From assembly GCA_041665345.1 (NCBI GenBank), contig JBAYJA010000004.1:48122-112121 (forward strand): 64,000 nt of DNA, in the 5' to 3' direction. Made by a program: the position numbers and the translations under genes. Of the stretch, positions 1 through 32,276 are shown piece by piece. This DNA is from Patescibacteria group bacterium. GTDB taxonomy: Bacteria; Patescibacteriota; Patescibacteriia; PEXW01. The notes under the pieces were generated by a model. The model did not search any database. It saw only the letters and a list, made by a program, of their open reading frames with translations, and was not told the origin of the DNA. The first letter of the stretch is position 1, and every line of letters begins with the position of its first letter.

Positions 1-610
1 TGATCTCCGCATCTGCCTTGGCATACCAGCTGCTCTGCTTGGGGTGGCTGGGTGACGAAATGACGGGTGATTGTGGGGAGGCAACTGGCTCAGGCTCTGG
101 TTCGATTGGCGTGACGGCTACGGCTTTGGCAATAGCAATGGTTCCTGAACCATACCCCGTAAGCACGTTTGTCCCTTCCCCATCATTAGCCAGCACAAGC
201 CCAGAGGTGAAGCGTAACGCTGCAGTACCAACGGCTTTGGCTCGGAAGGTGACGCTGATAATACCGCCACTACTCCCAGAATATCCTGGGCTCGGTACCC
301 CGCCAGCAAAGCTCACTGTGCCGTTGGAGTTGGAGTAGGTGGGTTCCACTGTCCAGTACTTGAAGGTGCTGGCTTTTGCCACGCTGGTTACCTGCAGTTT
401 ATCTGCGGGGAAACTGAGCGTGCCTTGGCTAGCGTTAATTGCTACGCCGCCACTGTTCACGTACAGCGTGACGGTTTTGGTTGCCCCAACAGTCATGCTG
501 GACGTACTTGGGGACACGCCCAAAGTTGCGCCAGCGTGCGCACCCTGCGGCAGCCCGAAGCCAAAGCACAGAACCGTCACTGCAATGCTGGCGAAAAAGC
601 GTTTGTGCAT
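1..610 (-). CDS. Cohesin-like domain surface protein, paralog 1 (partial: N-terminus at 610, runs off window)
   Basis: ATG at 610-608 on the minus strand is not in the ORF track because the ORF leaves the window. My translation MHKRFFASIAVTVLCFGFGLPQGAHA... has a signal peptide. The rest aligns with the N-terminal domains of 615..2117 and 2148..3266: TLYVNSGGVAINASQGTLSFPADKLQV...YSNSNGTVSFAGGVPSPG, then SSPSHPKQSSWY. Confidence 0.55.
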   Translation of the reverse strand, partial: MHKRFFASIAVTVLCFGFGLPQGAHAGATLGVSPSTSSMTVGATKTVTLYVNSGGVAINASQGTLSFPADKLQVTSVAKASTFKYWTVEPTYSNSNGTVSFAGGVPSPGYSGSSGGIISVTFRAKAVGTAALRFTSGLVLANDGEGTNVLTGYGSGTIAIAKAVAVTPIEPEPEPVASPQSPVISSPSHPKQSSWYAKADAEI

Positions 611-614
611 ATAC

Positions 615-2117
615 CTACTGCTGCCCAGTTGGTGGACTTGTCCGTCCAAAGTCGTCATTCGACGACGCAGGCGGATGGAGAAAATCAGCTGGTTGCTCAG
701 GGGTTTGCGGAGGTTGCTGCGCTGATGCAGTCCCAACTCTGGATTGCAGGCTCCGCTGCAACTCCTGGGCCTCTTGTTGATGAGAAAACTGCTGCTCAAT
801 GGACGCCTCCAGAGAGTGCGCCGCCTGAATGGTACGGACCAATTCTGATTCCTTGCGTAACGTCTCCTGTTCCAATTTATGGATATCATGGATCACGTCA
901 CCTGCCCGCCGGCGCCAGCGAATGACCAGCCAGGTTGCAAGAACCAGCACCAGGAGCCCGGCAATAATAAGTGCTACGTTGGTGAAGAGGGTATTCTGCA
1001 GCAAAGGTGTGCGACCAATAATGGATCCGCTCTGCGCAGCCGCAACTGTGAAATCCAACTTCCCATCCGTGGAATTTCCCGCTTGGTCAAACGCCCGCAC
1101 CAACACTTGGTACCGACCGGCAGTCAGCTCTGGGAGACGAACTGGGCTCACCACTTCGGTGAAGAATGGGGTTGCTTGGTTTGGATCATCCAAGGCCAGG
1201 AGCTGCATTTCGTAGTGATCAATGCCAGACATGGCATCGGTGGTCAGGAACTTCAGCTCGGGTCGCTTGCCTGGTTCTGGCGTGGGGGGGTCAACCGTGG
1301 GGGTAAAGGCAGCTGGCGGCGTCCCATCAATGAGCACAGCACCGTGGCTGGTGCCGCCCCAGCTGGTTACTTTTGCGCGCAGGTGGAAGTACCACCGACC
1401 ATCTCGGTCAGCGGTGACCGAGGTGCTGCGTGCGGGCGTGGCATCTTGGCGTTCGGGTGGCGTGGTACGCGGGTTTTGATCAAAGACGTAACTGTACCCC
1501 ACGGCATTTGGGACTTCATCCCAGTTGTACTCCACGGTTCGGTTTTGGTACCACGTATTCTGGTCGGGGTGGGAAGGCGAGGAAAGCACTGGGCCTTCTG
1601 GTGCAGCCAAGTTCAGCGTAAAATTTGCATCCCCACGAGAGTTAAGAATATTCGTGCCTTGGCCATCATTCGCCAGCACTTGCGAAGCGCTGGTGAAAAC
1701 GAGCTTGGCCGTCCCAGGTGCAGTCACCCGGAAGGTAATGGTACTCATTACCCCGGCATCAGTTTTGATGCCCGGATTTGGCAAACCACCTTGGAAGGAA
1801 ATTGTGCCCGCGGTGTTGGAGTAGGTTGGCTGGCTTACCCAAATGGAAACGAAGGACGTGCCGGCTGATGGGTTCACCACTTGCAAGCGCGAGGCCGGAA
1901 AGGTAATGTCCGCCCGCACCGCATTTACGGATTTTCCACCCGTGTTCACCAAAACGGAGACGTTGAAGGTGCTCCCAACGGTAAATGCGCCGGTTGCGGG
2001 TGAGAAAAGCAAACTCGCCCCATCTGCGGCGTGCATGGAGTTTGGAAGAAAGTACAGCGTCAGGGCGAAGAACGCAATGATACTCGCTTTACGGATTGTG
2101 CTTTTTCGTACCTCCAT
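615..2117 (-). CDS. Cohesin-like domain surface protein, paralog 2 (signal peptide, cohesin-like beta domain, SPSHP-WY module, C-terminal TM helix plus cytoplasmic coiled-coil tail)
   Basis: 500-aa ORF with ATG start. N-terminal signal peptide MEVRKSTIRKASIIAFFALTLYFLPNSMHA. Cohesin-like signature SVLVNTGGKSVNAVRADITFPASRLQVV...GTISFQGGLPNPG...ITFRVTAPGTAKLVF. TM helix LFTNVALIIAGLLVLVLATWLVI followed by RRRAG. Confidence 0.6.
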   Translation of the reverse strand: MEVRKSTIRKASIIAFFALTLYFLPNSMHAADGASLLFSPATGAFTVGSTFNVSVLVNTGGKSVNAVRADITFPASRLQVVNPSAGTSFVSIWVSQPTYSNTAGTISFQGGLPNPGIKTDAGVMSTITFRVTAPGTAKLVFTSASQVLANDGQGTNILNSRGDANFTLNLAAPEGPVLSSPSHPDQNTWYQNRTVEYNWDEVPNAVGYSYVFDQNPRTTPPERQDATPARSTSVTADRDGRWYFHLRAKVTSWGGTSHGAVLIDGTPPAAFTPTVDPPTPEPGKRPELKFLTTDAMSGIDHYEMQLLALDDPNQATPFFTEVVSPVRLPELTAGRYQVLVRAFDQAGNSTDGKLDFTVAAAQSGSIIGRTPLLQNTLFTNVALIIAGLLVLVLATWLVIRWRRRAGDVIHDIHKLEQETLRKESELVRTIQAAHSLEASIEQQFSHQQEAQELQRSLQSRVGTASAQQPPQTPEQPADFLHPPASSNDDFGRTSPPTGQQ

Positions 2118-2147
2118 ACCCAGTAGTATAGCGCGTCTGCTCCAGTT

Positions 2148-3266
2148 TTACCGCTTCTTCCTTTGCACCCACCAGGCTGCTCCAAGAAGAGTGAGGGCAA
2201 TGACTGCGCCACCGCCAATCCACACCCACTGCGGCACGCCAGCTGCGGAAGCAGCAGGAATGAACGCCACCCGCACGTTCCCAGCTTGATCGTACGCACG
2301 GACGGTCAGTGTAAACCGTTGATGGACATCGCTCACCTGGTAGGGGCTTGCTGCTGGTTGAAATGCTCCATCCCCTTCCTGCACTTCGTATCGCTCTATC
2401 CCAGATGTACGATCCTCAGCTTGGAAAACCAAAGCGAGTTTGCCTGGAATGACGTCTCGCCTCAACTGCGGGGTAAAGGGCTCTGGCTGAGTGGTGTCAA
2501 TGAGTACCCGCCGCCGAACCAATGCACCCCACGTATCATTAGGTAGCTTTTCTTGGATGGTAAAGTAGTACGCACCGTCTGCCTGACTGGGAAATGTAGT
2601 CTCACCTACGAACCGGGCTTGCTGCACATCGGGCACTGCGTTGCGGTCGGTGGTGAGCAGAAACGCGTACGGTGTCTCCTTGGCCGCTTGCCACTGCATG
2701 CGCACGGTGCTGATGGCATACCACTGATGCTCATTGGGATGCGATGGTGAAGTAATGCCCAGGGTATCTGCAGTCACGACAACATCGACGTAGAGCGAGC
2801 GCAAACGGAGGGCAGCTTTCGTTCCCAGACCGTCATTCAGGTACACCCCAGCTGTTCCGCCATCAATGCTTAGTTGGGTAGTGCCAAGTTTCTTGGCCCG
2901 GAAAATGACCTGCAGTACCCGGCCGTCAATAACGTAACTCCCATTCGGAATCCCACCGGCAAAGGTAATCACTCCGGTTGCTGGATCGCTCTTTGGCTCT
3001 TCTGGCCAGAGCGAAAGCACAGAACCAGCTTTCTCCAGGCCAACTATTTCCAGAGCATGAGGATCGTACGTCAACCGCGCCTGCACAGCATTGATCACCT
3101 CTCTTTCGCTATCAACGCGCACTTCAACAATGAAGGTTTGGTCTTGCCCAACCTGCGGATTAGCGGTTTGAACAGTCAGAGTTGCTGCATGTGCAAGATT
3201 GGGCACACTGCACAGCAGGACCGCGCTCCAGAGCACAACGCCAATTCGCATGATATGTGTGCGCAT
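2148..3266 (-). CDS. Cohesin-like domain surface protein, paralog 3 (signal peptide, cohesin-like domain, C-terminal TM anchor)
   Basis: 372 aa. Signal peptide ending LAHA. Segment TFIVEVRVDSEREVINAVQARLTYDPHALEIVGLEKAGSVLSLWPEEP...GVITFAGGIPNGSYVIDGRVLQVIFRAKKLGTTQLSIDG matches the cohesin pattern. C-terminal VWIGGGAVIALTLLGAAWWVQRKKR is a TM helix. Confidence 0.6.
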   Translation of the reverse strand: MRTHIMRIGVVLWSAVLLCSVPNLAHAATLTVQTANPQVGQDQTFIVEVRVDSEREVINAVQARLTYDPHALEIVGLEKAGSVLSLWPEEPKSDPATGVITFAGGIPNGSYVIDGRVLQVIFRAKKLGTTQLSIDGGTAGVYLNDGLGTKAALRLRSLYVDVVVTADTLGITSPSHPNEHQWYAISTVRMQWQAAKETPYAFLLTTDRNAVPDVQQARFVGETTFPSQADGAYYFTIQEKLPNDTWGALVRRRVLIDTTQPEPFTPQLRRDVIPGKLALVFQAEDRTSGIERYEVQEGDGAFQPAASPYQVSDVHQRFTLTVRAYDQAGNVRVAFIPAASAAGVPQWVWIGGGAVIALTLLGAAWWVQRKKR

Positions 3267-3268
3267 AG

Positions 3269-4129
3269 CTATTTCGTTCCCGTCCAGAAGTAGAGCATGA
3301 CGCTGAAGTCAATGATGTTCACCGTGCCATCCTGGTTAATATCTGCCCTGGCATTTGCTGGATTCCGCTTATTCCAGTAGAACAGCAAAATACTGAAGTC
3401 TACCAAGTCCACTTTCCCATCACAGTTAATATCCCCTTTCGTCTTACCCGCGCAGAGTTCCGTAGTCGCTACCTGGAAAGCCACGGAGCGGCTGAATTCG
3501 GAAACTGACCCGTCTGGATCAGTGGCTTTGGACCGGACACTGTGCGAACCAATCTGCAAATCAGAAGCTTGGAACTGCTTTGACCAAGCACCTGCGGTTG
3601 AAGCTGATACCTGCGAGGAAGTTTCGGTTTCTGAACTCACGTAAATCTGCACCGTGCTGCTGGGGCTCGTTGTTCCAAAAACCGTGATGGTATCTCCCAA
3701 GCGCACTTCGGTTTTATCCGCGGCAATGGTGGGTCCCAAGAATATCCCGGTAATGGTCACGGAAGTTCCGGTTGCCAAGGTCAAAGTAAAATTCGAGGTT
3801 GGTCCGTCTCGGCCATCTTGGTCCACGCTGAAGACCCCAAATGTGTACGTTCCTGCGGTTAACCCACCAATGGTCACGTCAAAGCGTGCTTGCGGGTCAG
3901 CGGGCACTTGCACTGCAGTAACCCCATTTTGCAAAATCGTCACCGTCGACCCTGGGTAGGCAATACCTTTGAGGATGACAGACGTTGCCGTTGGTTCCGG
4001 TGGTGCAATACTGGGCACAGTTGCTGAAACGGAAACCGTAATGTCAGCATTGGCTGGCAGGACAAGCAAAGGAAAAACAAGAATCATCACTAGGAGTGAT
4101 CGGCCAAGAGTTCGCACCACAGGGCGCAT
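3269..4129 (-). CDS. Secreted Ig-like repeat protein with C-terminal dockerin module
   Basis: Start trimmed to ATG 4129 (MRPVVRTLGRSLLVMILVFPLLVLPANA, signal peptide); 4195 is an upstream in-frame ATG that would overlap the preceding gene. The C-terminus has two dockerin-type Ca-binding repeats: GDINCDGKVDLVDFSILLFYW and ADINQDGTVNIIDFSVMLYFW. Confidence 0.6.
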   Translation of the reverse strand: MRPVVRTLGRSLLVMILVFPLLVLPANADITVSVSATVPSIAPPEPTATSVILKGIAYPGSTVTILQNGVTAVQVPADPQARFDVTIGGLTAGTYTFGVFSVDQDGRDGPTSNFTLTLATGTSVTITGIFLGPTIAADKTEVRLGDTITVFGTTSPSSTVQIYVSSETETSSQVSASTAGAWSKQFQASDLQIGSHSVRSKATDPDGSVSEFSRSVAFQVATTELCAGKTKGDINCDGKVDLVDFSILLFYWNKRNPANARADINQDGTVNIIDFSVMLYFWTGTK

Positions 4130-4142
4130 GTATTCGTTCTGC

Positions 4143-5207
4143 TTATTCTCCCGTCGGCGGCGTCTTGGTTGACGCGCGTCGGCGAATCCAAGCATTGTAC
4201 TTCAGGATTGCAAAAATCAGCAGGAAGAGCACGACCAGCAACCCAACTCCGTACACCACCAAGACATGCCAAGGGAGTACCCAGAAGCTTATTGCAGCTG
4301 AGCTTTGCACACCCGCCGCGGGCACTGTGGTTGCCAGTTCTGACGTGGCTTGCCCCGTTCCAACAGACAGCGTTGCGGTGTACTTCCCAAGGGCAAAGTT
4401 CTTCCGTTCATTACGGAATGCAGTCCAGAAGCGGTTCCATCCATTGCCGTACAGATCTTCGTTCTGTCCGGTTTGCCAGGTCGTCTTGTACGTTCGGGAG
4501 GATTTGGGCAACGTTGCGCCTTTGGGTTCGTTGAAAGCCAAAAGGGCGGACTGCTTCTTCAAAGTGTTGGTGATGGTTACATTCCCTACTGGCTTGAGGT
4601 GAATATTCCCCGTATTCTGGTACACCGTGGTGAATTCAATTGGTAACTGAGTGAATGTATCCTTGGCAACAGAAAAGCTGGTAATTACCGCGCTCTCCTG
4701 CACATCACCCTCAACTTTAACGAATAGGAGGGTGCCAATCCCCTGCGCAACAGCCACTTGGGGCTTCGCGTTGCCTTCCGCGGTTGGCGGCGTGGTGGAA
4801 AAAGCAACCACACCGTAGTGACCACCCGGCCCAGCATTCGCGGGGACATCAACGGTTACCAAGACTGCTTGGCGACCCTGAGGTTCCAGGACGATTGGCG
4901 CGGGATCCAGTTTCACCCAGGTAGCAATGTCTTCCTTCGGTGCTGCAAAGTCATACACCGGTATTCCAGCTTCGGGACCTGAAGTAAACGTGGTGGTGTT
5001 GATGTACAGCACCTGCTTTTGGTCAGTTTCATTGTAGAGTTTCACCACAAAGTCAGCCTGATTCCCAGGCTGGGCGGTGAACTCAATGGAAGGCGGGCTA
5101 ATCGTCAACGCTTGGGCTGTAGTGATGCTCGTAAGCACACCAACAAAACCAAGGGTAACAACCAGGAAACCTCGAACCAAAAATGAAATTTTCTTTGCTC
5201 TTTCCAT
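4143..5207 (-). CDS. Secreted protein with C-terminal membrane anchor (CscA/DUF916-like or PapD-like surface-complex component; inference)
   Basis: 354 aa with a signal peptide. N-terminal beta domain ISPPSIEFTAQPGNQADFVVKLYNETDQKQVLYI. C-terminal hydrophobic helix LVVYGVGLLVVLFLLIFAIL followed by KYNAWIRRR. Confidence 0.5.
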   Translation of the reverse strand: MERAKKISFLVRGFLVVTLGFVGVLTSITTAQALTISPPSIEFTAQPGNQADFVVKLYNETDQKQVLYINTTTFTSGPEAGIPVYDFAAPKEDIATWVKLDPAPIVLEPQGRQAVLVTVDVPANAGPGGHYGVVAFSTTPPTAEGNAKPQVAVAQGIGTLLFVKVEGDVQESAVITSFSVAKDTFTQLPIEFTTVYQNTGNIHLKPVGNVTITNTLKKQSALLAFNEPKGATLPKSSRTYKTTWQTGQNEDLYGNGWNRFWTAFRNERKNFALGKYTATLSVGTGQATSELATTVPAAGVQSSAAISFWVLPWHVLVVYGVGLLVVLFLLIFAILKYNAWIRRRASTKTPPTGE

Positions 5208-5339
5208 GCGTTTATTTAGTCAAAAACTGCCCTCATAGTATACCACTTTTCCTGCCCACTCACTACTCCATCATACAACTCGCCTGAAGCGTCAATAATC
5301 GAGGCTTCAGGCGAAGAGCGGTAAACGTCGAAAAGTCAG

Positions 5340-6431
5340 TTAGAAAGTGCCGGTTGCGATATAGGTAATCGCTGTGGAGTAGCTGCCGGCTTCTGTGGCC
5401 GCCGAAATATTCGCAATGTAGTGCGCGTCGATGGTCGCAGCTGCTGTAGGTCCGGCAATGGACAGGATAGCCGTGGTAGTGCCAGCAACGAACTTGAAGT
5501 TATTCGCGGACTCATCGTAGGCTGCGGTATCAGCAAAGGTGAAGGTAGCAGCGTTATCGTCAAAGCCTATTGCAAACTGCTCGGAGCCTGGGGTGCCATC
5601 CGCATCACCAGCAATGGTTGCTACGGAAATTGTGTCGCCACCGCTCGTCAGTGTGGCACCGGTGTACGTCAGGGCAACACCGTCTGTGGCATTTGTCCCT
5701 AATTGGAAGGTATGCGCAGCCTCTGGTGTAGTATCGCAGGCCGCAGGTGGTGTACCATTCGCCCAACACTCTTGCGTGGCATCCAAAACCCCAAACCCAA
5801 TGGCCACGTCCGAAATGGAGAAGGTGACGGATGGGTCAACCGTGGCGGTAACATTCACTGTATCATCATCCAGAATGGCAACTGCAAAAGAACCGCTGTC
5901 TGACGTGGTGGTGATGTCAATTTTGTAGACCGCTGCTGAGCTGGGATTGGTAATCTCGTTATTGTCGATGGTAAAGGCGATAGCACCAGCAGGAACCGTA
6001 TCGCCAGTGCAGACAGTTAACGTGTAACTTTCTCCTGGGGCACTCGCGTCAACGGATGGGTACACCTCATCTGTTGCACCAGCACATGCACCAATGTTTG
6101 CAACAATGGTCAAACCCGAAGCAGCCGAAAAATCCGTACTTGCAATAGTACCATCGAGAGTAAAGGAATCAGCCGCTGTGTCGAATGCGATAGTAATTGT
6201 CTGCGTGGCAGTGAGGTTCGTTGCGGTAGTAAAGGAAAAAGCATGCGTCCCAGCTACACTCTTCTCCAAACGGGACATGGTGTCCTTCATCCCGGTCAGT
6301 GCAGCTGCACCCACTGGCTGAATTGGCATAAAAAACCCAAGTACCCCAAGCACCGTAAAGAGCACAACGACGGTTCGGGTCGTGCCACGTTTCATGCCAC
6401 GTTTCATAAGTAGCTTGATGGGATTTTTCAT
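5340..6431 (-). CDS. Secreted protein carrying the conserved C-terminal beta domain shared with the giant protein (SCPU-like / WxL-like; inference)
   Basis: 363 aa with a signal peptide. The last roughly 165 aa (TFSISDVAIGFGVL...CWANG...GVALTYTGATLTSG...IAGDADGTPGSEQFAIGF...EAGSYSTAITYIATGTF) align with the C-terminus of the 6656..17620 protein. Confidence 0.6.
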   Translation of the reverse strand: MKNPIKLLMKRGMKRGTTRTVVVLFTVLGVLGFFMPIQPVGAAALTGMKDTMSRLEKSVAGTHAFSFTTATNLTATQTITIAFDTAADSFTLDGTIASTDFSAASGLTIVANIGACAGATDEVYPSVDASAPGESYTLTVCTGDTVPAGAIAFTIDNNEITNPSSAAVYKIDITTTSDSGSFAVAILDDDTVNVTATVDPSVTFSISDVAIGFGVLDATQECWANGTPPAACDTTPEAAHTFQLGTNATDGVALTYTGATLTSGGDTISVATIAGDADGTPGSEQFAIGFDDNAATFTFADTAAYDESANNFKFVAGTTTAILSIAGPTAAATIDAHYIANISAATEAGSYSTAITYIATGTF

Positions 6432-6517
6432 AAAAATTTGCCTAAGGTAAAGACTTTTTATTTTTAACTATCTACAGTATAACACAGTTTCTTGAAAAAA
6501 GCAAATCCTACCCTTTT

Positions 6518-6646
6518 GTCATTCTGTGAGACGGAGTAGAGACTGTAGTCTCTCTGCAGATACAGACCAGAGGCTTCCGCCATAGGCGGATCTGCTGAGA
6601 AGTCTCTACTCCGATATATCATCATTCACGTAAGTCGAAGAATGAC
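6518..6646. repeat. MITE-like palindromic element with about 9-bp terminal inverted repeats GTCATTCTG / CAGAATGAC; contains the GGAGTAGAGACT...AGTCTCTACTCC hairpin
   Basis: Ends gtcattctg (6518-6526) and agaatgac (6639-6646). Internal 12-nt arms ggagtagagact (6534-6545) and agtctctactcc (6601-6612). Related element at 50506..50623. Confidence 0.4.
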
Positions 6647-6655
6647 AGCATATTC

Positions 6656-9600
6656 CTAGAACGTCGTCGTTGCAATGTACGTGACATTTGTACTGTATGC
6701 ACCCGCCGTCGTAGCACTGGAAATGTTACAGATGTAGTAAACACTAGCCGTCTCGATTACCGTAGACCCAGCTTCAGACATCAACGTGGTTGCAGTGCTG
6801 GGAACGAACGAATAATTGTCACTTGCTTTCTGGTACGCAGAGGGAATGGTTGCATTGCCATCTGTGGTTATTGATAAAGCAAATTGTTCACTACTTGGTG
6901 TGCCATCTGCATCTCCTGTAAAGGTTGCGGCAGTAATATCCTCGGGCCCTGACAGGGTAGACCCAAAGTAAGTTAATGCATACCCGCTCCGAGCATTGGT
7001 GGTCACGGCTAATGTATGTGCGGACACGGCACTGGCAGAGCCGGTTGCCGCCCCATTTGCCCAACGGGCTGCTGCAGAGGAAAGTGTCCCAAAGCCCACC
7101 GCGGTATCAGAAATGCTGAAAGTCAAAGTATTAATATTCCAGCATGGGTTGTTGGTCGAATCGTAGTTTGTACCGTCTGTGGCATCAATGTCATCCCCTG
7201 GGCAGGCATTGGAATCACGTACATCCGTATTGGAGACGGTTTGCGTTCCCAGGCTATTGAGGTCCCACAGGGTTCCTGTGGTTGACGAACGCAAGAACAC
7301 GCGTGTGCCAGTTGCTTGGCCGTTGAAGGCAATATTGTTGAATGTATACGTACCGCCGGCCAGGAAGCGCAGCTTCGTATTTGCTGTCTGCGCTGTGAAC
7401 GTTGCTGCAGTTTCTGCCGCAGCCGCAAAAATGACAGAGGGCGAAGTGACCGGATCCGCACCGGAGCTATTGGTAATAGTGAGGTTATTGAACCGATCAC
7501 TTGCACCAGTCAATTGCCCATCAACCGTTTGCTGAGCGGCGCCATCCAGGGTCACTGTCCCGGTGTTGTCCGTGAAATCACCATTGTTCGTCCAGTTCCC
7601 CGCAACCGTGAAACTTGCGGTTGATGATCCATTCAGCAGGCCTTTTGAGGTAATTGTTACTGCACCATTGGCATCAAGAATCCGATCATTGGTTTCATTA
7701 TCTAGCGTCGTCACATTCGAATCACTCGCGTTCCCAATCGTGAGCGTTCCCGAAACAATAACCTGCCCGGTTCCACCCGTAGCAAACGTAACCGTACGGT
7801 CTGTGGCGCCTGAGGTTTCAAAGGAAAGATTATTGAACGTCCAGTTATTTGCATTTGCTGTGCTGCCAAAATTTTTAGCAGCCGCAACCCGATGCAAAAA
7901 TGTGCCACCTGACCGGGTTACGGTTCCACCCCCAGCCAATGTGCCATACATGGTGATATCTGTTGCGCCCAGCAAGCTCCCGGCGGTCACCGTCAGATCA
8001 TTCCCCACAGTCATGGCGGTATTCGTGGTCCACTCCCCACCGCTGCCGTTGAATACGAGGTCGTAAAAGTCGTCAAGATCGCCCATTGTACCACCAATGG
8101 TATTTCCAGTATCGGTCGCGGTAAAGGTGACTGTCGCCGATCGGGCCGTAAAAGAATCGTTATTTGTCCAGTTATTGCCAACCGAGATGCTGTTACTCTC
8201 ACCAGTTTTCGTATCCAGAACCCCGCCGGTGATCGTAATGTTATTCGTAACAACCAGCGGGTCCTCCACTTCAACGGTGAGGGTGTACGTCCCACCACCG
8301 TCATTCACAATGACGTTGTAGGGGTTTCCAGTGCCAACGGTAATAAGGTCTGTGGTGGCATTTGCAACGACCGTACTTGCAAGCGTCATAGTCAACGTGG
8401 ACTGATCAGGCGTGAAGGTTCCACCAGTCTGTAGGTCGAATTTCCCATCCGTATCCATGAACGTTTCATCAGTTTCCACATCATCGGTAGCGTCCAACGT
8501 CCCAACGATGGTTATGCCGCCCGTGCCAATATCCAGGTCGTAACCATTCGTATTGAAGATATCACCCGTCGGGATGGTTACTGACTTTGCAGTAAAGTCA
8601 GAACCCAAGTCCGTCGTACCAGGCGACAACCCAACCTGCACATTGCCCATATCCTGTTTCGGTGAGGTGTTATCCGTGAAGGTCATCGGTGTAGGATTCC
8701 CATCCATGATTAGAATGCCAGAACCTGTAGCTGCAGTGAAAGTCGTTCCCGTTGCAATGGTGAAATTACCGTAAACTGTAAGGTTGGCATTTGCCGCCTG
8801 CGTAAAGCCTCCCCCCGTGATGTCGAACGTCTTATTCACCAACACTGCGTCTGCGGTGGCAACGCTTCCACCAGACACTTCAAACTTCTGCAGTTCGTTT
8901 CCCGCAGCGGTGAGCGTCTTGGACGTGCCGTTCATCTTCAGGGTATTGTCAGTGGACGCCGTGTACGTCCCCCCAGTGAAATCCACGTTCCCACTGACGG
9001 TCCACACCCCCGTGCCCGAGGTAATCACTTCGCTTCCACCTCCAGTACCGGTGAAGTCAACATCCCCACCCACCGTGACCGTCGGGTTATTCGAGGCGCC
9101 AATCAGTGTGGCATCTCCTACACCATCGGTAATCACGTAAAGGTGTGAACTTGCGCCGGAAAGGGTGAACGACCCAGTGGGGAAAGTGAAGGTTTTTGCC
9201 GTGCCACTATTGGTGAACAGCTCTACCCGTCCACCATACGTCCGCGCGTCCAGAGTCGTGGACGCAATGTTCGCTGACGAACCATCGTAACGGACAATAC
9301 TACTGAGGGTTCCGCCCGTCCCTGGACCGGATGAAGCGTCGGTGAACCGCAAGGTTCCATCCCCGCTTATGGTTCCCGTGGTATTAAGCGTCAGCGTTCC
9401 AGGCGCATTCACAATTCGACCGCTACCAATAGATAGAGTGTCGCCATCTGCCACATCGAGCGCGCCAGACACCGTGAGATCCGACGTGCTCACTGTTATT
9501 GTCCCTGTGGAAGCAGGATTAATAGTAAGGTTGTTGAAGGTGGTTGCCGTGGATCCAGTTAAACTGTTCGACGTACCGGTCATGGTTATGGTGGATGTGC

Positions 9601-12600
9601 TCTGCGTAAAGGTACCGTTATTCGTAAGCGTCCCGGCAATGGTGTACACACTGTTCCCACCTGAGGTGAGCGCGCCGCCAATGGTCACATTCTTCGCGGT
9701 TACGGTTTCTGTGCCACCAATCGTCAACGTGGCGCCAGAGAGAATGCTCAGCGTGGCGCTGGTGTACGTTCCACCTGCCTGAGCAGCCAAGGTGGAGGAA
9801 TTTGCCGTGTGTACAATATTTTCATTATCATCAGCATCATACTGGCCCATGTTGGTTACCGTCACCGATGGATTGTCCACGCTCCCAATGGTCAGCACAT
9901 TTGTGTCCAAGACCAGGCCAGTAATGTTCCCCGACCCGTCATAATTCGTAACGGCTGTTGTTTCCGCACTATCGGCAACGCCATCCACAAAAACCGTAAC
10001 CGTATTCCCTGTGGCCACGGTAACGCCAGAAATAGTCCACGTTCCAGCCAAGGTTGTGGTTTGAGCTTGAATGCTCCCATTCACCGCTACTTTCACTGTC
10101 CCGCCTGAACTGTTCGACGTGCCAGCTACGTCTATACCACAGGTTGCGCCAGCACTGACTGTAATATTCGTATTTCCGCTATTCGTAGACTGGGAGAAGG
10201 TGGCACATATTGCTGCGCCAGCATTATTTGCATCGCTAATGTCTACGTAGGAAAGTGACGCTGAAGTTGGGTTGACGTTCCAAGCGTTGCCCACACTGGA
10301 TGATTGCAGGGTGATCAGCTGGCCCAAAGCTCCAGTGACTGTCCACGTACCCGCGATGGTCTGTGTTGTGGCAGCGGTAACGGTAATTACCTTTGCCGCA
10401 CCAATACTGGTGACCGAAAGATTATTGAAGGTTGTACTGCCGGCAATAGTTGAAGCCGCTGTAGTAGTAAGCGCAATGGTGCCGGAATTATGGGTGAACG
10501 TGCCAGCATTAGAGAAGCCGGCTCCAAAATTTGTGGTGGTAGCTGAGCTTGCCTGGAAAACCGTATCCGCCGCAATCGTCACATTACCGGTGACAGTGAA
10601 GGTTGGATCCCAGGTATTCACCTGGAAAATCGTAGTGCTGGAACCGGTGCCAGTGTTCAATAGGTCCAGCGTGGAGGCGATGGTCAGGGTTTGCGAACCC
10701 GCAGTGCCGGCAGTCACCGTGCGCCCCGCCGTCGTGCCACTATTATCAATTTCCACTTTTTGGTAATCCGTGCGGGCACCCATGGATTGATCAGTGGCCG
10801 TGGCGTCCATTCGTAAAATGAGACTTGCGCCCAGTGTCCCGCCGGTTGGGAAAGTTGTAGCACTTCGGTAGGTAAGCCGACCCGGGCCGTTGATAGTGCC
10901 GCTTAAGGTAAGCGTGGCGCCAGTGTGGGTAATAGTGCGGCCGGAACTAATGGTCAAGACGTTACTTGCTCCAGACAATAGTAGAGTATTTGTAACAGCA
11001 ATATCTGATGTTTGTACCGTTACAGCTCCACTGGCGTTTCCAATATCCAGGTCATAAAATGTTGTGCTACTTGAGCCGTCAATTGAGCCTGCGCTCCCTG
11101 TAAGACGTACTCGACTGTCATTATGGGTAAAAGTTCCGTTGTTCGTGAATGTCCCACCAACCGTCAAGTTTGATGTGGATGTAAATGTGCTTGGGGTCAA
11201 TGATCCAGAAATCAACAATGCATTACTTACGGTTAAGTTATTTGCAATACTCATGCTGCCACTCGACGTAAAATTGTAGAGTGTGCTACCTCCAGTATAT
11301 GCGGTTAATGTTTTTGAGGTGCCATCCATGATGACCGTATTCCCAGTTGACGCAACGTAACAATACGTAGCCAGAAAAGAGTTGCATGTTGCATCAAAAT
11401 TTCCTGAGATAGTCCAGATCCCAGAACCCGACGACACTGGTTCCGTGCCGTCGCCAGTACCCAATATATCAAAGTCACCACCAATATTCACCGTGGGATT
11501 ATTGGTTACACCGGTGACAGCCATATCCCCAGTGCCATTAGCATAGACGTAAAAGTGGCTACTGGCGCCAGAAAGTGTATACATTCCAGTGGCAAAAGTC
11601 GTAGTTCGACCCGTTGCGCCACTATTGAAGAACTCAACCGTGTTCCCATACGTCCGCGCGTCAAACGTCGTGCTAGCAATATCTCCACCAGTGGCATCGT
11701 ACCTCGTAATCGCACTTATGATTCCCACCGTACCTGGACCACCACTCGTGTTGGTAAAGGTGATGCGGCCCGGACCGGCAATGGTACTGGAACTTGTAAG
11801 CAATACGTTTGCTCCAGTATGCGTCAATGTTATCCCACTGGCTATGGCCAGCGTGGCGTCCGTGTTGACGAGGAGGGTATTTGTAACCGTCAAATCTCCC
11901 GTCTGCAAGGTCAGGGTACCTGTACTCACTGGGTCATAGCGAAGATTGTAGAGAGTCTGACCATTGCTGGTTATGGTTTTCCCAATACCGGTGGTGAACA
12001 CCGTTCCAGTCCCTGCATCCACGGTTAATCCAGAAGCCATTACAAAATTTCCATCGATATGTGTGGAAGACCCTAGCGTGTAGGTGGGTGTTCCACTTGC
12101 TTGCTGCAAGGTTAGGTTATTGAAGTTGCCTACGTAAATTGTGGTCGCACCAGTACCGCTGTATACAAAAGTTGAAGTGCCAGGAATGAGTACTGTGAAG
12201 CCAGACTCATCCACTATCGGTGTCCCTGAGCCGGACAGGGTCCAGGTTTTTGCCCCAGCATTGAGCGAGTGCATGTTAAAACTCTCCCCGGCGGCAGTTG
12301 CCTCAAGAGTAAGCACATTAGTGACAGTTACCCCGCCATTCCCTGTAGCTGTTGTGGTAAAAATGTTTCCCCCAGATTGCTCCAAAGTGAGGTTATAGAA
12401 TGTCCACCCAGTGGCACCACCAAAGTTCCCTGTCTCACTAAGCGTGAAAGTTGGTGTGCCGCTTGTAGTTGTTACCGTTCCATCACCTGTGACGGCCCCA
12501 CCATTCACGGTCATATCTGCATTTACAGTCAGGGTTGAACTCGTGTCCACGACAACATCCCCAGTGACGGTGAAAGTCCCAACTGCAACCGTGAGTGCCG

Positions 12601-15600
12601 AAGCCACACTCCCATTCCCCACAGTTAGGTTATTGGAAACCGTTGCAGCTTTCTGCAAAGTCGTTGTCGCGGCTGTCCCATCGCCAATCACTAAATTGTA
12701 AATGGTAATTGCTCCGCTGGCGCCATTGGTTCCCAAATTTCCAGTCCCGCGCATGGTTACGGTGGGAGTTCCACTGGATGCGATGATCCCGGTTGTCGTA
12801 TTTGTAAAGTCGCCGCCACCGACGGTCAGGTTTGCGCCAACCGTGAAGGTTGACCCAGTACCCACTGTCACATCACCGCCAGTTACAGTAGTCGCAGCGG
12901 AGCTCAATGCAGTGGTTGCCGTAGTACCATCACCAATCAGGAGATTGTAAAACGTAAGTGTAGGGGTTGTGCCACCACCAATACTCCCACTACCCCGCAT
13001 GGTTGTAGTTGCGGTCCCAGTGGAACGAGTAACAACAGCACTCGTGCCTGCAGTTGTAATATCACCGCCAGCAACAATCGTGTTTGCATCAATATTCAAC
13101 GTTGCCCCGCCATCCACCAAAATATCCCGGCCAATGGTATTCGTGGCGGTGTCGAGAGATGCCGTACCACCGTCATCTATGTGAAAATCTCCGCCTGTAC
13201 TATTGGTGGTCACGGTCCCGCCCGGATCGTACGTGTCACCCGCCCACACATGAAACTCCATGCCAGACTCCACGGTCAAGTTACCAGTAGTAACGCTATA
13301 CCGAACACCAACATTCGCTCCAGTATCAGCTGTCGCTAATTTTGCATTTGTCATGGGCCCTGCGTCTTCGTGACGCACCGAGGTGTGATCTTGATAAATG
13401 TGCAAATCAACAATATCTGACGTCGTGTCAGCAGCCAGGGTCACCGTTGTCCCCTTAATTGCTTCAACGCTATCAATGAAAATTGCAATTGGGTCTGCGG
13501 CGGTGCTTGGGCGAGCAGCTGCGATAGCAAATGAACCATTACTCAAGGTGCAGTCAGCGGTCTGCTCAGACGCACTGCCATTCACGGACGCACGGACGGT
13601 TATGGCATTTGCCGAACAGTCATACGCCGTTGGGGTTTCATTGGTGTAGATTTTCCCATAGATCGAAATGGATGCTGGCACATACTCAACTAAGAGCCAC
13701 AGCGTTGTTACCTGCAATTGTTCGGGAGAGAGGAGGTTGCTTGTATTTAAATTGCGAACACCGATTTGCGCGCTATCCAGGGTCGTCGTTGTCCAGGCGG
13801 TTAACTGCTGCGGCCGGGTATAGGCGGTCATGCCATAAATTCTTGGAATCGCCGAATGGTGCGACATCCATGTCGTTGTCGTGAAATTCTCTTTCGTCCC
13901 TTCAATAACCGCCCCACTCGCACTATCTTTCAATCGAACTGCGGTTGTGAAAGCCGACGTATTCCCGATGTTGGCACGCATACCAGCAGAAACCAGAGAA
14001 ATTGTGTCTGAAGCACCAATGGACTGTGTCGAACTATCAAAAAGATTAACGTCCGTAATAGTGTTCGCTGTGGCTGTGTACAGGTAAGTTGTTGCATCAT
14101 CTGGGTCTGCTTCATCCACATAGGTATAGTCATTCGTAAAACCCGTATTATCCCCGGCGGCATTTGGTTTCAGGTGTGCTATCGACCCTGCGCCAGGGTA
14201 TCCATTTTGCGTTGTACCAGCATTCTGGTTCACCGCCACATCATCGAAGTACCAATCGCCTTGCGTTTGCGCTTCAGAATTTAGGTTGCCACCAAGTGCA
14301 ATTGTTGTTACACCATTAAGAAGGTCTCTGGTTGAGCTGGATCCAAAATTGGTTCCATTTATTCTGCCTTCAACCGTATCAGTTGCACCCGCACCAGACG
14401 AATTTATTTGGAATTCCACCCGGTACCATGTGCTGGTACTCAAGGCGGCTGACGTGCCAATCGGCGTCCCGCCAGAATCTTCATCGTGTAGCTCCAGTGC
14501 GCCAGTGCTGGTCAGCACCAGGAACACTCGGTCTGTAGTCCCGGAATCTCGAAACGACATGATGCGATTACTCGCACTCGGCAAGGTTTCAATCCGGAGA
14601 TACGCCCGGGCATAGTATGGGCCGTCTGCATTCGCTGCCACAAAATCTTGATTCACACCTTCAGCCGAACCCGAACTCATCCCGTTAATGCGCAACGATG
14701 CGCCTCCAGAGCGGTAGTAGGTTGCAGTTGTGTTGATGGTTGGTCCGCCTGCAATCCCCGCCCACTCTTCACCCGCGCTTACCGTTTGCATTTCAAAACC
14801 AGATGACCACAACCGACCACCTTCTGCTGGCTCATACTCCACCAGCAACCACATCGTCGTTACCAGGAGATCGGGAATTGCATCAGTTGCGGTCACGCGT
14901 AATAAACCATCGTCAATGTTCGCAGCGGTCATTACATCGTAATCTGCAGCCGAGGTTTGATCACCGTAGGAAGTTTGCTTGTAGGTTCGTGGAGCCGCGT
15001 TGCCATTGGTGGTATAGGCGGTCGCGCTATCAGAAATACTCGTTGACTGGTCAACTGCATTCCCACTTGGGATTTTTACCTGCAGATTATGGGCACCAGC
15101 TGCTGCACTGAGACGCGTATACCGAATCCCAGCTTGCGTCAAAATTATTCTATCTTTCGCATTCATACCCTGACTTCCTGTACTTTCTAGGGACACCTCA
15201 AGAAAATCCGTCCCGGCGTCACTATCACAGGTCACCGTTGTTGTCGTATCATCTGGTCCACCAGCGCCACGATCATTTACGGCATCCCATGAGCTAGTTG
15301 ACCCACTGCAGGTATTCGAAGAAGCGCCGCTTGGTTGTCCATCTGGCATGAGGTGTACAATTTTTCCCGCCCCTGGCCAGTTTTCCGGTATGCTTGGGGT
15401 GATGCCGGCATCGTCAGAATTAATTGCCAAATCGTCCCAGAATATTGTTGAGGCTCCACCCGTATCAGTTGAAAGCGTACCAATGCGTACAACGTTGGAA
15501 CCATTCGCATGGTTCACCGTGCCTGACGAGAACGTCACGCCATCCACCTTGGCCTCAAGGTAGGTAGTGCCAATCGTTGTGGTGTCACTCCGAAACTCAA

Positions 15601-17620: not shown

Positions 17621-17950
17621 TCGAGTTCGGTAGGTCACTTGCACCCGTTGGTGCTGCCGCGTTTGTAACTCATGCCGCATTGCCCGTTGGAAACTGTGCG
17701 TGCGGGCACGGTACACCTTTCGCGCTGACTGGGGAGCTCCGGCAACCGATGACTTTTTTGCAACTACAGTTTTCTGTCGAATCACCCCGCGTTTTGCAAC
17801 AACTCGACGACCTCTGAGTCCAAGTGGACGCGACTTTAGGTACGTCGTTGTGCTTTGCGGTTTGGGCATGGAGGAACGTTTTGTTCGCCGAACGAAGCAC
17901 TTGGCCTTCCGTGTCTTTATACAAGAATCCAATGTATATTATGCCACATT

Positions 17951-17994
17951 TTCACAACAATAACAAAATTGGAGCAAACGTAAGTTTGCTCCAA
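17951..17994 (-). terminator. Rho-independent terminator (minus strand) upstream of the giant-gene start
   Basis: Hairpin ttggagcaaac-gtaa-gtttgctccaa (17969-17994), followed on the minus strand by ttttgttattgtt. Confidence 0.4.
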
Positions 17995-18310
17995 TGAATG
18001 AGCTTTACCAACTCATCGCCCAGCTGCAGTCCTTGGCGCTGCAACTGGCATGGTAACTAATGCCAAAGTCGTTGCCTGTTGAAGATGCTTTGTCGAAAAG
18101 GACATTTGAATGCCCGTTTGGACAAAAGAGATTACTCGCATCACACATAATACCGTTTGGGCCGGACTGACCTATGCCCAAGCGTCGTACGATTTCATCT
18201 TGTAACGCACGTTCTGCTGAACTAAAATCTGTTGCTTCCACTCTGCCTCCAATCAAAAAACGTTTTATCTTTTATAATACCGCCAAGCATAGCTGCATTT
18301 CGCTCTGCTG

Positions 18311-18706
18311 TCAACCCTGCAACTTCCGGTGCTCAACCATAATGCACGTCCCAGGGTCATTCACCGTCATACCCAAATGCCCAGCCAAAATGGTGGTTTC
18401 TTGTGATTCTGCTCCAGGTTGAAACCAAATTTTAGTAAACCCATAGTGGTGGGCTTCGTGCAGAATGTGCAAACCAATCTGGGGTGGGACAACGAACACC
18501 AGCACATCTGGCTTCTTGGGAATTGCTTCAATACTGGCGTAGCACGGCACACCAGAAACCGAAGAGTACTTTGGATTCACACCCACAACGTCCAGCTGAT
18601 GCGCATGCAGGTACTGCAAGACACGAAAACCATACTTTTCCACGTTTGTCGTTGCACCAACAACGGCGTAGCGAAAATTCTTCTGAAAAAAAACTTTGGT
18701 ATCCAT
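18311..18706 (-). CDS. CoA-binding domain protein (YccU-like)
   Basis: MDTKVFFQKNFRYAVVGATTNVEKYGFRVLQYL...VVGVNPKY, typical CoA-binding fold. ATG at 18706 chosen; the track start 18748 is TTG. Confidence 0.55.
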   Translation of the reverse strand: MDTKVFFQKNFRYAVVGATTNVEKYGFRVLQYLHAHQLDVVGVNPKYSSVSGVPCYASIEAIPKKPDVLVFVVPPQIGLHILHEAHHYGFTKIWFQPGAESQETTILAGHLGMTVNDPGTCIMVEHRKLQG

Positions 18707-18741
18707 ACGTACAGTATGCCTGAAATACGCAAGCTGAAAAC

Positions 18742-18770
18742 TTGACAATAACCTCTATTTTTGGTATGAT
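18742..18770 (+). promoter_or_regulatory. Sigma70-type promoter TTGACA-N17-TATGAT driving the dockerin metalloprotease gene
   Basis: ttgaca at 18742-18747, 17-nt spacer, tatgat at 18765-18770, about 75 nt upstream of ATG 18846. Confidence 0.45.
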
Positions 18771-18845
18771 GTATATATTACGAGAAGTGAAAATGATTTC
18801 ACTTTTCCTTCAGCAATTTCGCCCCTAACCTTGTAATTTACGTCT

Positions 18846-24315: not shown

Positions 24316-25125
24316 ATGTCTACTGAAATCCACCCGGTTCTCCAGCACCTGCTGGCTCGCCGGGGCAAAACCGTGCCCGTGCAGGATGGGAGAAAAATTG
24401 CCCTGGTGCTGTACGGCGGCGCCATGGCTGGTATTGTCGGTGGTGGTGCAGTCCAAGCCTTGCACGAGCTTGGACTTGACCAGGCGTTTGATCATATTTT
24501 TGCAAACTCCGCTGGGTTTTGTAATGCTTCCTACTTTTTAGCAAACCAGGTTCGGTTAGGTATCACCATCTATTCAGAAAATCTGACGAGCAAACGTTTT
24601 ATTAATCTCTGGCGATTTTGGAAAATGGTTGACGTGGACTATGCCGTGGAAGTAATGCGAAACGTGAAGCCGCTCAAAGTTGAGCATATATTAGCCTCCG
24701 CTACAAAGTTACACGTGTCATTGTATAACCAAACCACGAAAAAAGACGCTTTCCTGGAAGTGCATGACCATCCGGCACATAGCTATTTCGATATTGTACA
24801 TGCGGCGACGGCCATTCATTTTTTTCATCCTGGTGCCACCCAAATTGACAGCCAACGGTATATGGATACCAAGATTGGCCAGGAAATTAACCGACTGCAG
24901 TACGCACGCGCACTTGGCTGTACGGATATCCTGATTATTTACAACCGAAAGGAAAATACCCCGGCAAAAGACCTGAATCAAAAGGATACCTTTGAAATTC
25001 GGCCTGATAGAGATTGGAATATTTCGCAGTTTGAGAGAAATCCTACAAAATTACTTGCGGCGTGTCGAGGTATGGGTCACAAAGTGAAAGTAACATTTGG
25101 TCTGGACAAACCAATTACTATTTAA
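24316..25125 (+). CDS. Patatin-like phospholipase, paralog 1
   Basis: LVLYGGAMAGIVGGGAVQ (oxyanion GGxxxG) and FANSAG (GxSxG-like nucleophile elbow). Paralogous to 38658..39569. Starts 2 nt after the rdgB stop. Confidence 0.6.
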   Translation: MSTEIHPVLQHLLARRGKTVPVQDGRKIALVLYGGAMAGIVGGGAVQALHELGLDQAFDHIFANSAGFCNASYFLANQVRLGITIYSENLTSKRFINLWRFWKMVDVDYAVEVMRNVKPLKVEHILASATKLHVSLYNQTTKKDAFLEVHDHPAHSYFDIVHAATAIHFFHPGATQIDSQRYMDTKIGQEINRLQYARALGCTDILIIYNRKENTPAKDLNQKDTFEIRPDRDWNISQFERNPTKLLAACRGMGHKVKVTFGLDKPITI

Positions 25126-32096: not shown

Positions 32097-32276
32097 ATGT
32101 TTAATATGTATACTTGCCGACGATTTCGTCAACAACTATGCTTATTTTTTAGCGAATATTAGCGATTTTTATGGTTGCACTATGTATATATTCTATACTA
32201 TTGACACTTTTTTGTAAAGCCATATACTACGCTATTAAAGAAAATTGATCATTAAAAATTTGAAAAGGAGTTTGAA

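Follow-up and report, generated by a model that had tools for sequence, protein, structure and literature searches.

Cohesin and dockerin proteins encoded with a Pam-type pilin in Patescibacteria, and a proposed pilus anchor

We analysed a stretch of 64,000 nucleotides (the window) from a Patescibacteria group bacterium (GenBank assembly GCA_041665345.1, contig JBAYJA010000004.1, positions 48,122 to 112,121), in which positions 1..17932 carry, on the minus strand, seven genes that we read as one operon. In the order of transcription these genes encode a giant secreted protein, a pilin, a chaperone-like protein with a transmembrane (TM) helix, an adaptor that ends in a dockerin, and the three cohesin-TM proteins coh1, coh2 and coh3 (Table 1). 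We propose, with a probability of roughly 0.6, that the operon encodes a donor-strand-exchange pilus of the Pam type, and that the dockerin adaptor docks this pilus on the cohesins of the membrane. The cohesin and dockerin genes, the four most 3' genes of the set, had been interpreted in the original prediction, made from this sequence without database searches, as a surface-display module. That interpretation is only partly right: the module is not free-standing, and its genes close a conserved pilus operon at the 3' end. The pilin gene of this operon, at 5340..6431, lies within the very range (1-6431) that the prediction covered. The last five genes, from the chaperone-like gene to coh3, are separated by only 13, 2, 30 and 4 bases.

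The Candidate Phyla Radiation (CPR), or Patescibacteria, comprises a large share of bacterial diversity, and its members live attached to hosts; to our knowledge, little is understood of how CPR cells hold on to these hosts. Cryo-electron microscopy of filaments of Ca. Mycosynbacter amalyticus led in 2026 to the description of the Pam pilus, for whose attachment to the cell there is so far a model (Troman et al., bioRxiv 10.64898/2026.03.03.709456). Its pilin consists of an N-terminal domain, then a linker strand, then a C-terminal domain, with the C-terminal domain taking up the linker strand of a neighbour. The proposed partners are the TM-anchored, PapD-like chaperones PamC and PamD, the linker-less tip PamT, and PamR (WP_260763282.1), a proposed terminator and anchor in which an additional N-terminal strand precedes two RbmA-like FnIII domains and a TM helix at the C-terminus (bioRxiv 10.64898/2026.03.03.709456). 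The words cohesin and dockerin do not occur in that paper.

Domains and predicted folds of the operon products

Table 1. Positions of the pilus operon and the dockerin-bearing metalloprotease in the window (aa, amino acids)
Feature	Position	Strand	Description
coh3	1..610	-	N-terminal 203 codons only; runs off the window start; cohesin domain at residues about 27-165
coh2	615..2117	-	500 aa; signal peptide, cohesin (residues about 33-175), two Fn3-like domains, TM helix, tail of about 95 aa; Pfam Cohesin 29.7 bits
coh1	2148..3266	-	372 aa; Pfam Cohesin 30.1 bits; cohesin fold by AlphaFold2 and Foldseek
coh1 TM helix	2154..2231	-	residues 346-371
coh1 cohesin domain	2778..3185	-	residues 28-163
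coh1 Fn3-like beta domains		-	residues about 173-256 and 267-336
Dockerin adaptor	3269..4129	-	286 aa; signal peptide, free N-terminal strand, Pro-rich spacer, two Ig-like domains, dockerin
Adaptor dockerin module	3272..3439	-	residues about 231-286; calcium-loop repeats DINCDGKVDLVD and DINQDGTVNIID
Proposed donor strand DITVSVSATVPS	4010..4045	-	adaptor residues 29-40, directly after the signal-peptidase site (between ANA and D)
Chaperone-like TM protein	4143..5207	-	354 aa; two beta domains and C-terminal TM helix; candidate PamC/PamD-like, WxLIP-like protein
Pam-type pilin	5340..6431	-	363 aa; N-terminal domain, linker strand, C-terminal acceptor domain (residues 202-363)
Pilin linker strand DTVNVTATVDPS	5829..5864	-	residues 190-201
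Giant secreted protein	6656..17932	-	up to 3758 aa; proposed tip adhesin
Pilin-type acceptor domain of giant protein	6659..7153	-	last 165 aa
Promoter-like site	17938..17966	-	just upstream of the giant open reading frame; consensus scan only
Terminator-like hairpin	17968..17995	-	12-bp stem; consensus scan only
HExxH metalloprotease	18846..21767	+	HEYGH; three Big_7 repeats; C-terminal dockerin
Protease dockerin	21480..21641	+	residues 879-932; Dockerin_1 31.5 bits; repeats DSDSNQIVTISDAVHLINYIF and DADGSGVVTISDSVHLINYIF

The domains that had been called cohesin-like are recognised as cohesins both by profile and by fold. The two complete paralogs, coh1 and coh2, score above the gathering cut-off of Pfam Cohesin (PF00963, 24.1 bits), and no Pfam Cohesin match was obtained for the partial coh3, whose fragment shares 42% identity with coh2 over 198 residues (E 5e-46); coh1 and coh2 align end to end at 29% identity (E 7e-39). 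The AlphaFold2 model of coh1, built with an alignment of 31 homologs, has a mean predicted local distance difference test (pLDDT) score of 91.9 and comprises a signal helix, the beta domain of residues 28-163, two further beta domains and the TM helix. When this model was compared with the PDB using Foldseek, cohesins ranked at the top, including the cohesin-FnIII pair 2w1n (E 3e-11), with target-normalised TM-scores to solved type I cohesins of 0.68-0.81 overall, 0.75-0.81 for CaCohA2 (6kgc), a C. perfringens cohesin (2vo8) and an A. fulgidus cohesin (2xdh), and 0.71 for CipA (1aoh). As modelled, coh1 has the beta-sandwich jelly-roll fold of about 140 residues expected of a cohesin. Nothing useful was returned when coh1 and coh2 were each compared singly with the sequences in the PDB, and it was the family profile and the fold search that were informative. 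From these fold matches, and because the cohesin family profile matches the FnIII domain of chitinase A1 (E 8e-5), we read the architecture as cohesin, Fn3-like domain, Fn3-like domain, TM helix. We also considered whether these proteins might lack matches to hidden Markov models (HMMs) of cohesin and dockerin, or might adopt a pilin or Ig-like fold devoid of calcium loops; neither is the case, and the observation stands.

The sequence blocks by which the cohesins and the dockerin had been singled out are all found in the products where they were placed, with VINAVQARLTYDPHALEIVG, GVITFAGGIPNG and VIFRAKKLGTTQL all present in the coh1 product. The original prediction also described three paralogs, each with a signal peptide, a cohesin-like domain, a shared SPSHP..WY module and a C-terminal TM helix. 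The paralogy is confirmed, and so is anchoring by a C-terminal TM helix, which is present in coh1 and, for coh3, is seen in orthologs only (L001 12843..14591 and L003 12655..14394, of 579-582 aa; L numbers are our labels for related loci). The shared module is likewise present, with SPSHPNEHQWY, SPSHPDQNTWY and SPSHPKQSSWY spread over the three paralogs, but it corresponds to two Fn3-like beta domains and not to one. Tails of about 95-100 aa, charged and coiled-coil-like in appearance, follow the TM helix in coh2 (615..920) and in the coh3 orthologs, unlike in coh1, which stops right after its helix; these tails may couple to something within the cell. A sortase-assembled pilus was rejected, as no sortase occurs among the operon products and the only trace of a sortase signal is a sub-threshold Gram_pos_anchor match on the TM segment of coh2 (16.1 bits against a cut-off of 20), with about 95 residues following it. 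A cellulosome was rejected as well: there is one cohesin per protein, and among the window proteins scanned there is no match to a glycoside hydrolase, a carbohydrate-binding module or an S-layer homology domain, in agreement with the non-cellulosomal setting, with no obvious glycoside hydrolases nearby, that had been predicted.

The adaptor does end, as predicted, in a canonical two-repeat dockerin. It matches Dockerin_1 (PF00404, cut-off 22.9 bits) at 38.8 bits, in addition to Big_13 and Big_6, and both repeats conform to D-x-[ND]-x-D-G-x-[IVL]-x3-D, the pattern that we took for a calcium-binding loop. Its AlphaFold2 model (mean pLDDT 90.3) contains two Ig domains and places dockerin helices at residues 242-250 and 272-283 with pLDDT of about 95, so that, in the model, the module consists of the two tandem EF-hand-like segments, each a predicted calcium loop plus a helix, of a type I dockerin. 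More than 246 homologs of the adaptor were found. Its tandem Ig domains match V. cholerae RbmA (4be5, 4kkq; E about 2e-6), the protein to which PamR has been likened structurally in the Pam paper; we treat this match as a generic signal because many tandem-Ig structures match. Two nearly invariant cysteines, C226 and C236, flank the start of the first dockerin repeat (ELCAGKTKGDINCDG), and a disulfide between them may steady the dockerin.

The pilin scores 75 bits, above the cut-off of 55, with the NCBIfam model NF058581, CPR_Pam_pilin_C ('Pam pilus system pilin subunit'). The best-conserved block of the pilin alignment is DD-x-V-x-V-T-A-T-V-D-P-T-x-T-F-S-I-S, within which we infer the donated strand to be V-x-V-T-A-T-V. 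The consensus of this linker, between the N-terminal and C-terminal domains, in 13 diverse pilins is V192 (12/13), any residue, V194, S or T, A196 (11/13), T197 (11/13), V198 (13/13), D, P, T. The N-terminus of the adaptor has nearly the same pattern: across 61 adaptor sequences the consensus reads V32 (V in 46, I or L in the others), any residue, V34, S or T, A36 (61/61), T, V38 (60/61), P or E, S, P43-P44. Both thus share the consensus V-x-V-[ST]-A-T-V. The mature adaptor begins with DITVSVSATVPS, continues with the Pro-rich spacer and then enters the first Ig domain; residues 23-49 lack secondary structure in the model of the monomer, where residues 11-40 have a pLDDT of 59-72. Of 119 adaptor homologs, 117 have an alternating strand of this kind just upstream of their first Ig domain.

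The relationship between adaptor and pilin is made more explicit by eight natural long variants of the adaptor (P0053, P0057, P0059, P0063, P0111, P0120, P0122 and P0129; 431-460 aa), in which a pilin-like N-terminal domain is followed by the strand, two Ig domains and the dockerin. Residues 21-213 of the window pilin align with residues 8-213 of P0120 at 31% identity (E 3e-13), with DTVNVTATV of the one corresponding to DSVQVSATV of the other, after which the two diverge. Judged from these alignments, the adaptor N-terminus is homologous to the pilin linker, and its V-x-V-[ST]-A-T-V strand would be the strand that the adaptor donates.

The giant protein presents the reverse combination. Its last 165 aa align with the C-terminal domain of the pilin at 46% identity (E 7e-33), and its C-terminal 200 aa, scanned alone, match Pam_pilin_C at 48 bits (E 1.3e-12), under the cut-off of 55; the full-length protein gave no NCBIfam match. 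The V-x-V-[ST]-A-T-V strand is absent from it, and the acceptor domain begins at LTFSISD. Giant proteins ending in an acceptor domain were also found in L003, L006, L009, L010, L012, L085 and L086. The N-terminus has a hydrophobic segment followed by a signal-peptidase-like site between SRA and E, and the true start codon of the gene is probably downstream of 17932. A weak Pfam match to MG2 (alpha-2-macroglobulin-like; 14933..17620, 23.1 bits, below the cut-off) is also faintly visible in the L003 ortholog (1..6749), and the remainder of the giant protein has no Pfam match; by eye, this remainder contains beta-helix-type repeats and two LamG-like modules.

The 354-aa chaperone-like protein is encoded where a Pam chaperone would be expected; it has weak matches to Pfam fn3_5 and WxLIP_PGBD, under the gathering score, and no NCBIfam match. 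A WxLIP_PGBD match recurs in 16 of 26 members of its family, and the family profile matches Enterococcus EfmWxLIP1 (9i25; E 6.5e-4). WxLIP proteins of Firmicutes (DUF916-DUF3324-TM) are TM-anchored, have two Ig domains and are predicted to insert a strand into a partner (Hassan et al. 2023, PMC10599100). The likeness to the 354-aa family thus extends to the two Ig-like domains and the C-terminal TM helix; in contrast to WxLIP systems, no WxL-domain protein was noted in the operon, where no search was aimed at one, and the similarity is marginal. It hints at a link between the CPR Pam chaperones and the WxL surface-complex proteins.

In the NCBI annotation, coh2 (MFA6042149.1) and MFA6042150.1 are each named 'cohesin domain-containing protein', the adaptor (MFA6042151.1) 'dockerin type I repeat-containing protein' and the protease 'Ig-like domain-containing protein'; both the pilin and the 354-aa protein are entered as 'hypothetical protein'. 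Upstream of the giant gene, the promoter-like site and the hairpin (17938..17995) probably mark the boundary of the operon; over 1..19000 promoter-like and terminator-like sites are no more frequent than in shuffled sequence, and of the whole scan we used only this single strong hairpin, as a suggestion. Scans for tRNA genes and Rfam families returned nothing relevant.

Conservation of the operon across Patescibacteria

To survey the adaptor more widely, GTDB species representatives were scanned with the adaptor alignment, yielding at least 193 relatives, of which the best 80 were kept. These best 80 are mostly labelled as CPR, namely Parcubacteria/Paceibacterota, Kerfeldbacteria, Falkowbacteria, Giovannonibacteria and Doudnabacteria, with further labels of Berkelbacteria, CPR2, WWE3, Saccharimonadia and Minisyncoccia. 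The small-genome bacterium that had been predicted for the window is a patescibacterium, the same proteins being present on a 1,075,605-bp contig of a metagenome-assembled genome (MAG) record titled 'Patescibacteria group bacterium'. Gene neighbours were counted at 79 adaptor loci, using local HMMs on six-frame open reading frames (ORFs). In 68 of the 70 loci with enough sequence, a cohesin-TM gene starts within 1.5 kb downstream of the adaptor on the same strand; there is one downstream cohesin gene in 14 loci, and there are two in 46, three in 4 and four in 4. In 48 of 67 loci, the 2.5 kb upstream of the adaptor include a gene for a homolog of the 354-aa protein.

The complete gene set is seen in the closer relatives. 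The same gene order occurs in L001, L003 and L004, contigs reached from coh1 homologs, and is rearranged in L002; the products of the three collinear loci have similar sizes (giant protein 2900-3500 aa, pilin about 362, TM protein about 350, dockerin protein about 286, cohesin-TM proteins about 370, 500 and 580). When loci were sought from the pilin, all four that were recovered contain a giant protein with an acceptor domain, one to three pilins, the chaperone-like protein, the adaptor and two cohesin-TM proteins, and two of the four are complete genomes (CP060230.1 and CP060223.1). Extra pilins are present in some loci, as three tandem copies in L086 (8765..12149) and as a second pair of pilin and chaperone past the cohesins in L087 (16722..18890), which suggests mixed-subunit shafts like those of PamA/PamB.

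Among the more distant adaptors (L013-L066; for example L018, L033, L040, L059 and L071), long poly-Gly runs take the place of the Pro-rich spacer, and some distant adaptors have N-terminal Cys-rich modules (CDDGNN..GDGC), with cohesin-TM genes still downstream. The same operon also appears in third-party annotation MAG records that go by 'uncultured Gammaproteobacteria bacterium' or by 'Planctomycetia bacterium' (L007, L008, L009, L011, L025, L034 and others), titles that are probably wrong or placeholders.

The proposed anchor, its alternatives and known systems

We propose that all products of the operon would be exported by Sec, and that their order in the fibre would follow from which of them possess a donor strand and an acceptor domain. 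The giant protein, with an acceptor domain and no donor strand, would be the distal tip, presumably an adhesin; the pilin, with both, would polymerise as the shaft through its V-x-V-T-A-T-V linker and acceptor domain, and the 354-aa protein would serve as a membrane-bound chaperone. The adaptor has a donor strand and no acceptor domain, and therefore could be only the last, cell-proximal subunit, whose entry would end growth. That the giant protein is at the distal end, and with it the polarity of the fibre, is suggested by analogy with the donor-strand-exchange logic of chaperone-usher pili and with the published Pam model. The dockerin of the adaptor would then bind, in a calcium-dependent manner, the cohesin of at least one of the three membrane proteins, which two Fn3-like stalk domains and a TM helix hold clear of the membrane, and the pilus would thereby be fixed to the cytoplasmic membrane. 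Adaptor and cohesin-TM protein would together stand in place of PamR, with the tasks of terminating and anchoring split between two proteins.

A broader version of this proposal, which we offer tentatively and regard as possible rather than probable, is that in much of Patescibacteria the cohesin-dockerin pair acts as a non-covalent plug and socket. The terminator would have been derived from a pilin whose acceptor domain was swapped for two Ig domains and a dockerin, and the cohesin paralogs would form a membrane socket complex, maybe taking other dockerin proteins such as the metalloprotease, and coupling the pilus to the cell interior.

Several observations weigh against parts of the anchoring proposal. 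Pilin domains were detected in only 26 of the 53 adaptor loci with at least 5 kb of upstream sequence (17 of 53 with narrow pilin HMMs, 26 of 53 with broader ones), and a link to pilus genes is therefore demonstrated in the closer relatives but not at every distant locus, where the adaptors carry other N-terminal modules (Gly-rich spacers, Cys-rich repeats). The NCBIfam Pam_pilin_C model begins about 20 residues after V-x-V-T-A-T-V, and hence VTFSIS could be the donated strand; if so, the giant protein would carry a donor strand too. A one-to-one anchor does not explain why one adaptor is accompanied by two to four conserved cohesin paralogs. The WxLIP similarity of the chaperone-like protein is weak, and the comparison with PamR is drawn from the description given in the Pam paper.

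The TM cohesins could alternatively be general sockets for several dockerin proteins, including the Ig-repeat protein and the metalloprotease, with the adjacency to pilus genes reflecting only a shared surface function. Several conserved paralogs per locus would suit several specificities, cohesin-dockerin pairs outside cellulosomes are widespread (one such cohesin, 2xdh of A. fulgidus, ranks among the best structural matches of coh1), and within 22 kb there are two dockerin proteins that differ in sequence type. The second of these dockerins had been predicted on the HExxH metalloprotease, and it is indeed present, scoring above the Dockerin_1 cut-off (Table 1); the protease itself matches Reprolysin_5 and Reprolysin_4 barely over their cut-offs, and has an M6-like match too. 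The further claim that the protease is docked cargo has fared less well, for it draws its support from this dockerin, which differs strongly from that of the adaptor. Between the gene and the operon lie an ORF of 145 aa, a hairpin resembling a terminator and, with 11/12 matches, a near-consensus promoter-like site of the protease gene itself, and no protease homolog was found in 84 related loci, nor upstream of the giant gene in L085 and L088; as a conserved partner the protease was rejected for now, though it may yet bind to one of the cohesins. It is the adaptor that is conserved as their partner; it adjoins a cohesin gene in nearly all loci and carries a pilin strand and, in the long variants, a pilin N-terminal domain. 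Taken together, we consider general surface display unlikely.

Alternatively, the cohesin-TM proteins could form an assembly platform that holds the adaptor or the pilins transiently, in the manner of an usher or chaperone, with the finished pilus released or kept in the wall in some other way. A complex could be built from several cohesin paralogs whose tails extend past the TM helix, and the Pam paper reports that pili seem easily untethered and that no trans-envelope machinery was found (bioRxiv 10.64898/2026.03.03.709456). Against this stand the distinct chaperone-like gene of the operon and the logic by which a donor-only subunit must be terminal. Cellulosomal cohesin-dockerin interactions, moreover, are classically tight and long-lived, and we regard a transient platform as quite improbable. 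Least probable of all, and in our view scarcely credible, is a fibre of reversed polarity, in which a hydrophobic segment at the N-terminus keeps the giant protein in the membrane, while the dockerin subunit caps the distal end and binds cohesins of sister cells, causing aggregation: the segment does exist, and a donor-only subunit would be terminal whichever end is proximal, but the segment is followed by the signal-peptidase-like site, subunits from TM-anchored chaperones would be out of reach of an acceptor domain some 3600 residues away, and growth is from the base, with a groove-only subunit at the tip, in chaperone-usher pili as well as in the Pam model as published.

The anchoring proposal may also be compared with the systems that it resembles. 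As in the Pam pilus, there is a CPR_Pam_pilin_C pilin, for which we propose the same layout of N-terminal domain, linker and C-terminal domain, a proposed groove-only tip, a candidate chaperone that has two beta domains and is TM-anchored, a proposed terminal subunit in which an N-terminal strand precedes two tandem Ig/FnIII (RbmA-like) domains, and an operon with neither usher nor sortase. We call the window system a variant of Pam because its strand-bearing, two-Ig protein ends in a dockerin where PamR has a TM helix, the TM helices being located on the separate cohesin proteins. Further differences are a tip of about 3700 aa as opposed to the small single-domain PamT, one chaperone-like gene as opposed to PamC plus PamD, and a lineage that is Paceibacteria/Kerfeldbacteria-like and not Saccharimonadia or Microgenomatia. 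In a profile search with diverse pilins for the pam operon of M. amalyticus, the 120 matches listed were all close relatives.

With the chaperone-usher pili (Pap/Fim) the proposed pilus shares a groove-only tip, a shaft of subunits with strand plus groove, a terminator that ends growth (PapH) and a donor strand (Nte) of alternating hydrophobicity; unlike them, it has no outer membrane and no usher, its chaperone is membrane-anchored, and its terminator lacks any groove and bears a docking module. With known cohesin-dockerin pairs (the anchoring scaffoldins of C. thermocellum, C. perfringens GH84C 2w1n, A. fulgidus 2xdh) it shares the folds and HMM families, the duplicated calcium-loop dockerin, a cell-bound cohesin with a secreted dockerin partner and, as in 2w1n, a cohesin followed by FnIII. 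In contrast to these pairs, there are no enzymes, carbohydrate-binding modules or multi-cohesin scaffoldin here, a C-terminal TM helix replaces the S-layer homology or sortase signal, and the proposed cargo is a whole pilus, held through its terminal subunit.

The domain annotation in NCBI, non-cellulosomal cohesin-dockerin pairs and the Pam pilus itself were already known. What appears to be undescribed is a conserved cohesin-dockerin pair within Pam-type operons, and a dockerin subunit that bears a pilin strand and is partly pilin-derived; our literature search, of incomplete coverage such that an earlier description is possible, found no paper tying cohesin or dockerin to CPR pili. If the adaptor is the terminator, pilus anchoring in monoderm-like CPR cells reduces to a testable protein-protein interaction, for which recombinant cohesin and dockerin modules are easily assayed, and the role of cohesin-dockerin pairs widens from the docking of enzymes and toxins to the fastening of filaments. 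It would also offer an explanation for the many 'cohesin domain-containing' and 'dockerin type I repeat-containing' proteins of CPR MAGs, given the breadth of species representatives that carry the adaptor. The relevance to host attachment suggested by the original prediction is still plausible, yet through a pilus rather than through a display module. The one dockerin protein of a CPR bacterium that our literature search brought up has been reported as essential when Southlakia epibionticum grows as an epibiont (SEML1_0315; PMC10633639).

Neighbouring genes

The 145-aa ORF between the giant gene and the protease (18311..18748, minus strand) resembles, by eye, a CoA-binding, YccU-like protein, and the strong terminator-like hairpin at 17968..17995 comes after it. 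Farther into the window are two patatin-like phospholipase genes, 24316..25125 (plus strand) and 38658..39569 (minus strand), with Pfam scores of 38.6 and 35.8 bits, whose products could act on host membranes. A radical SAM/SPASM-like enzyme (25605..26759, minus strand) adjoins a TrmB-family regulator (26932..27663, plus strand), and a second regulator of this family is encoded at 31344..32135 (minus strand).

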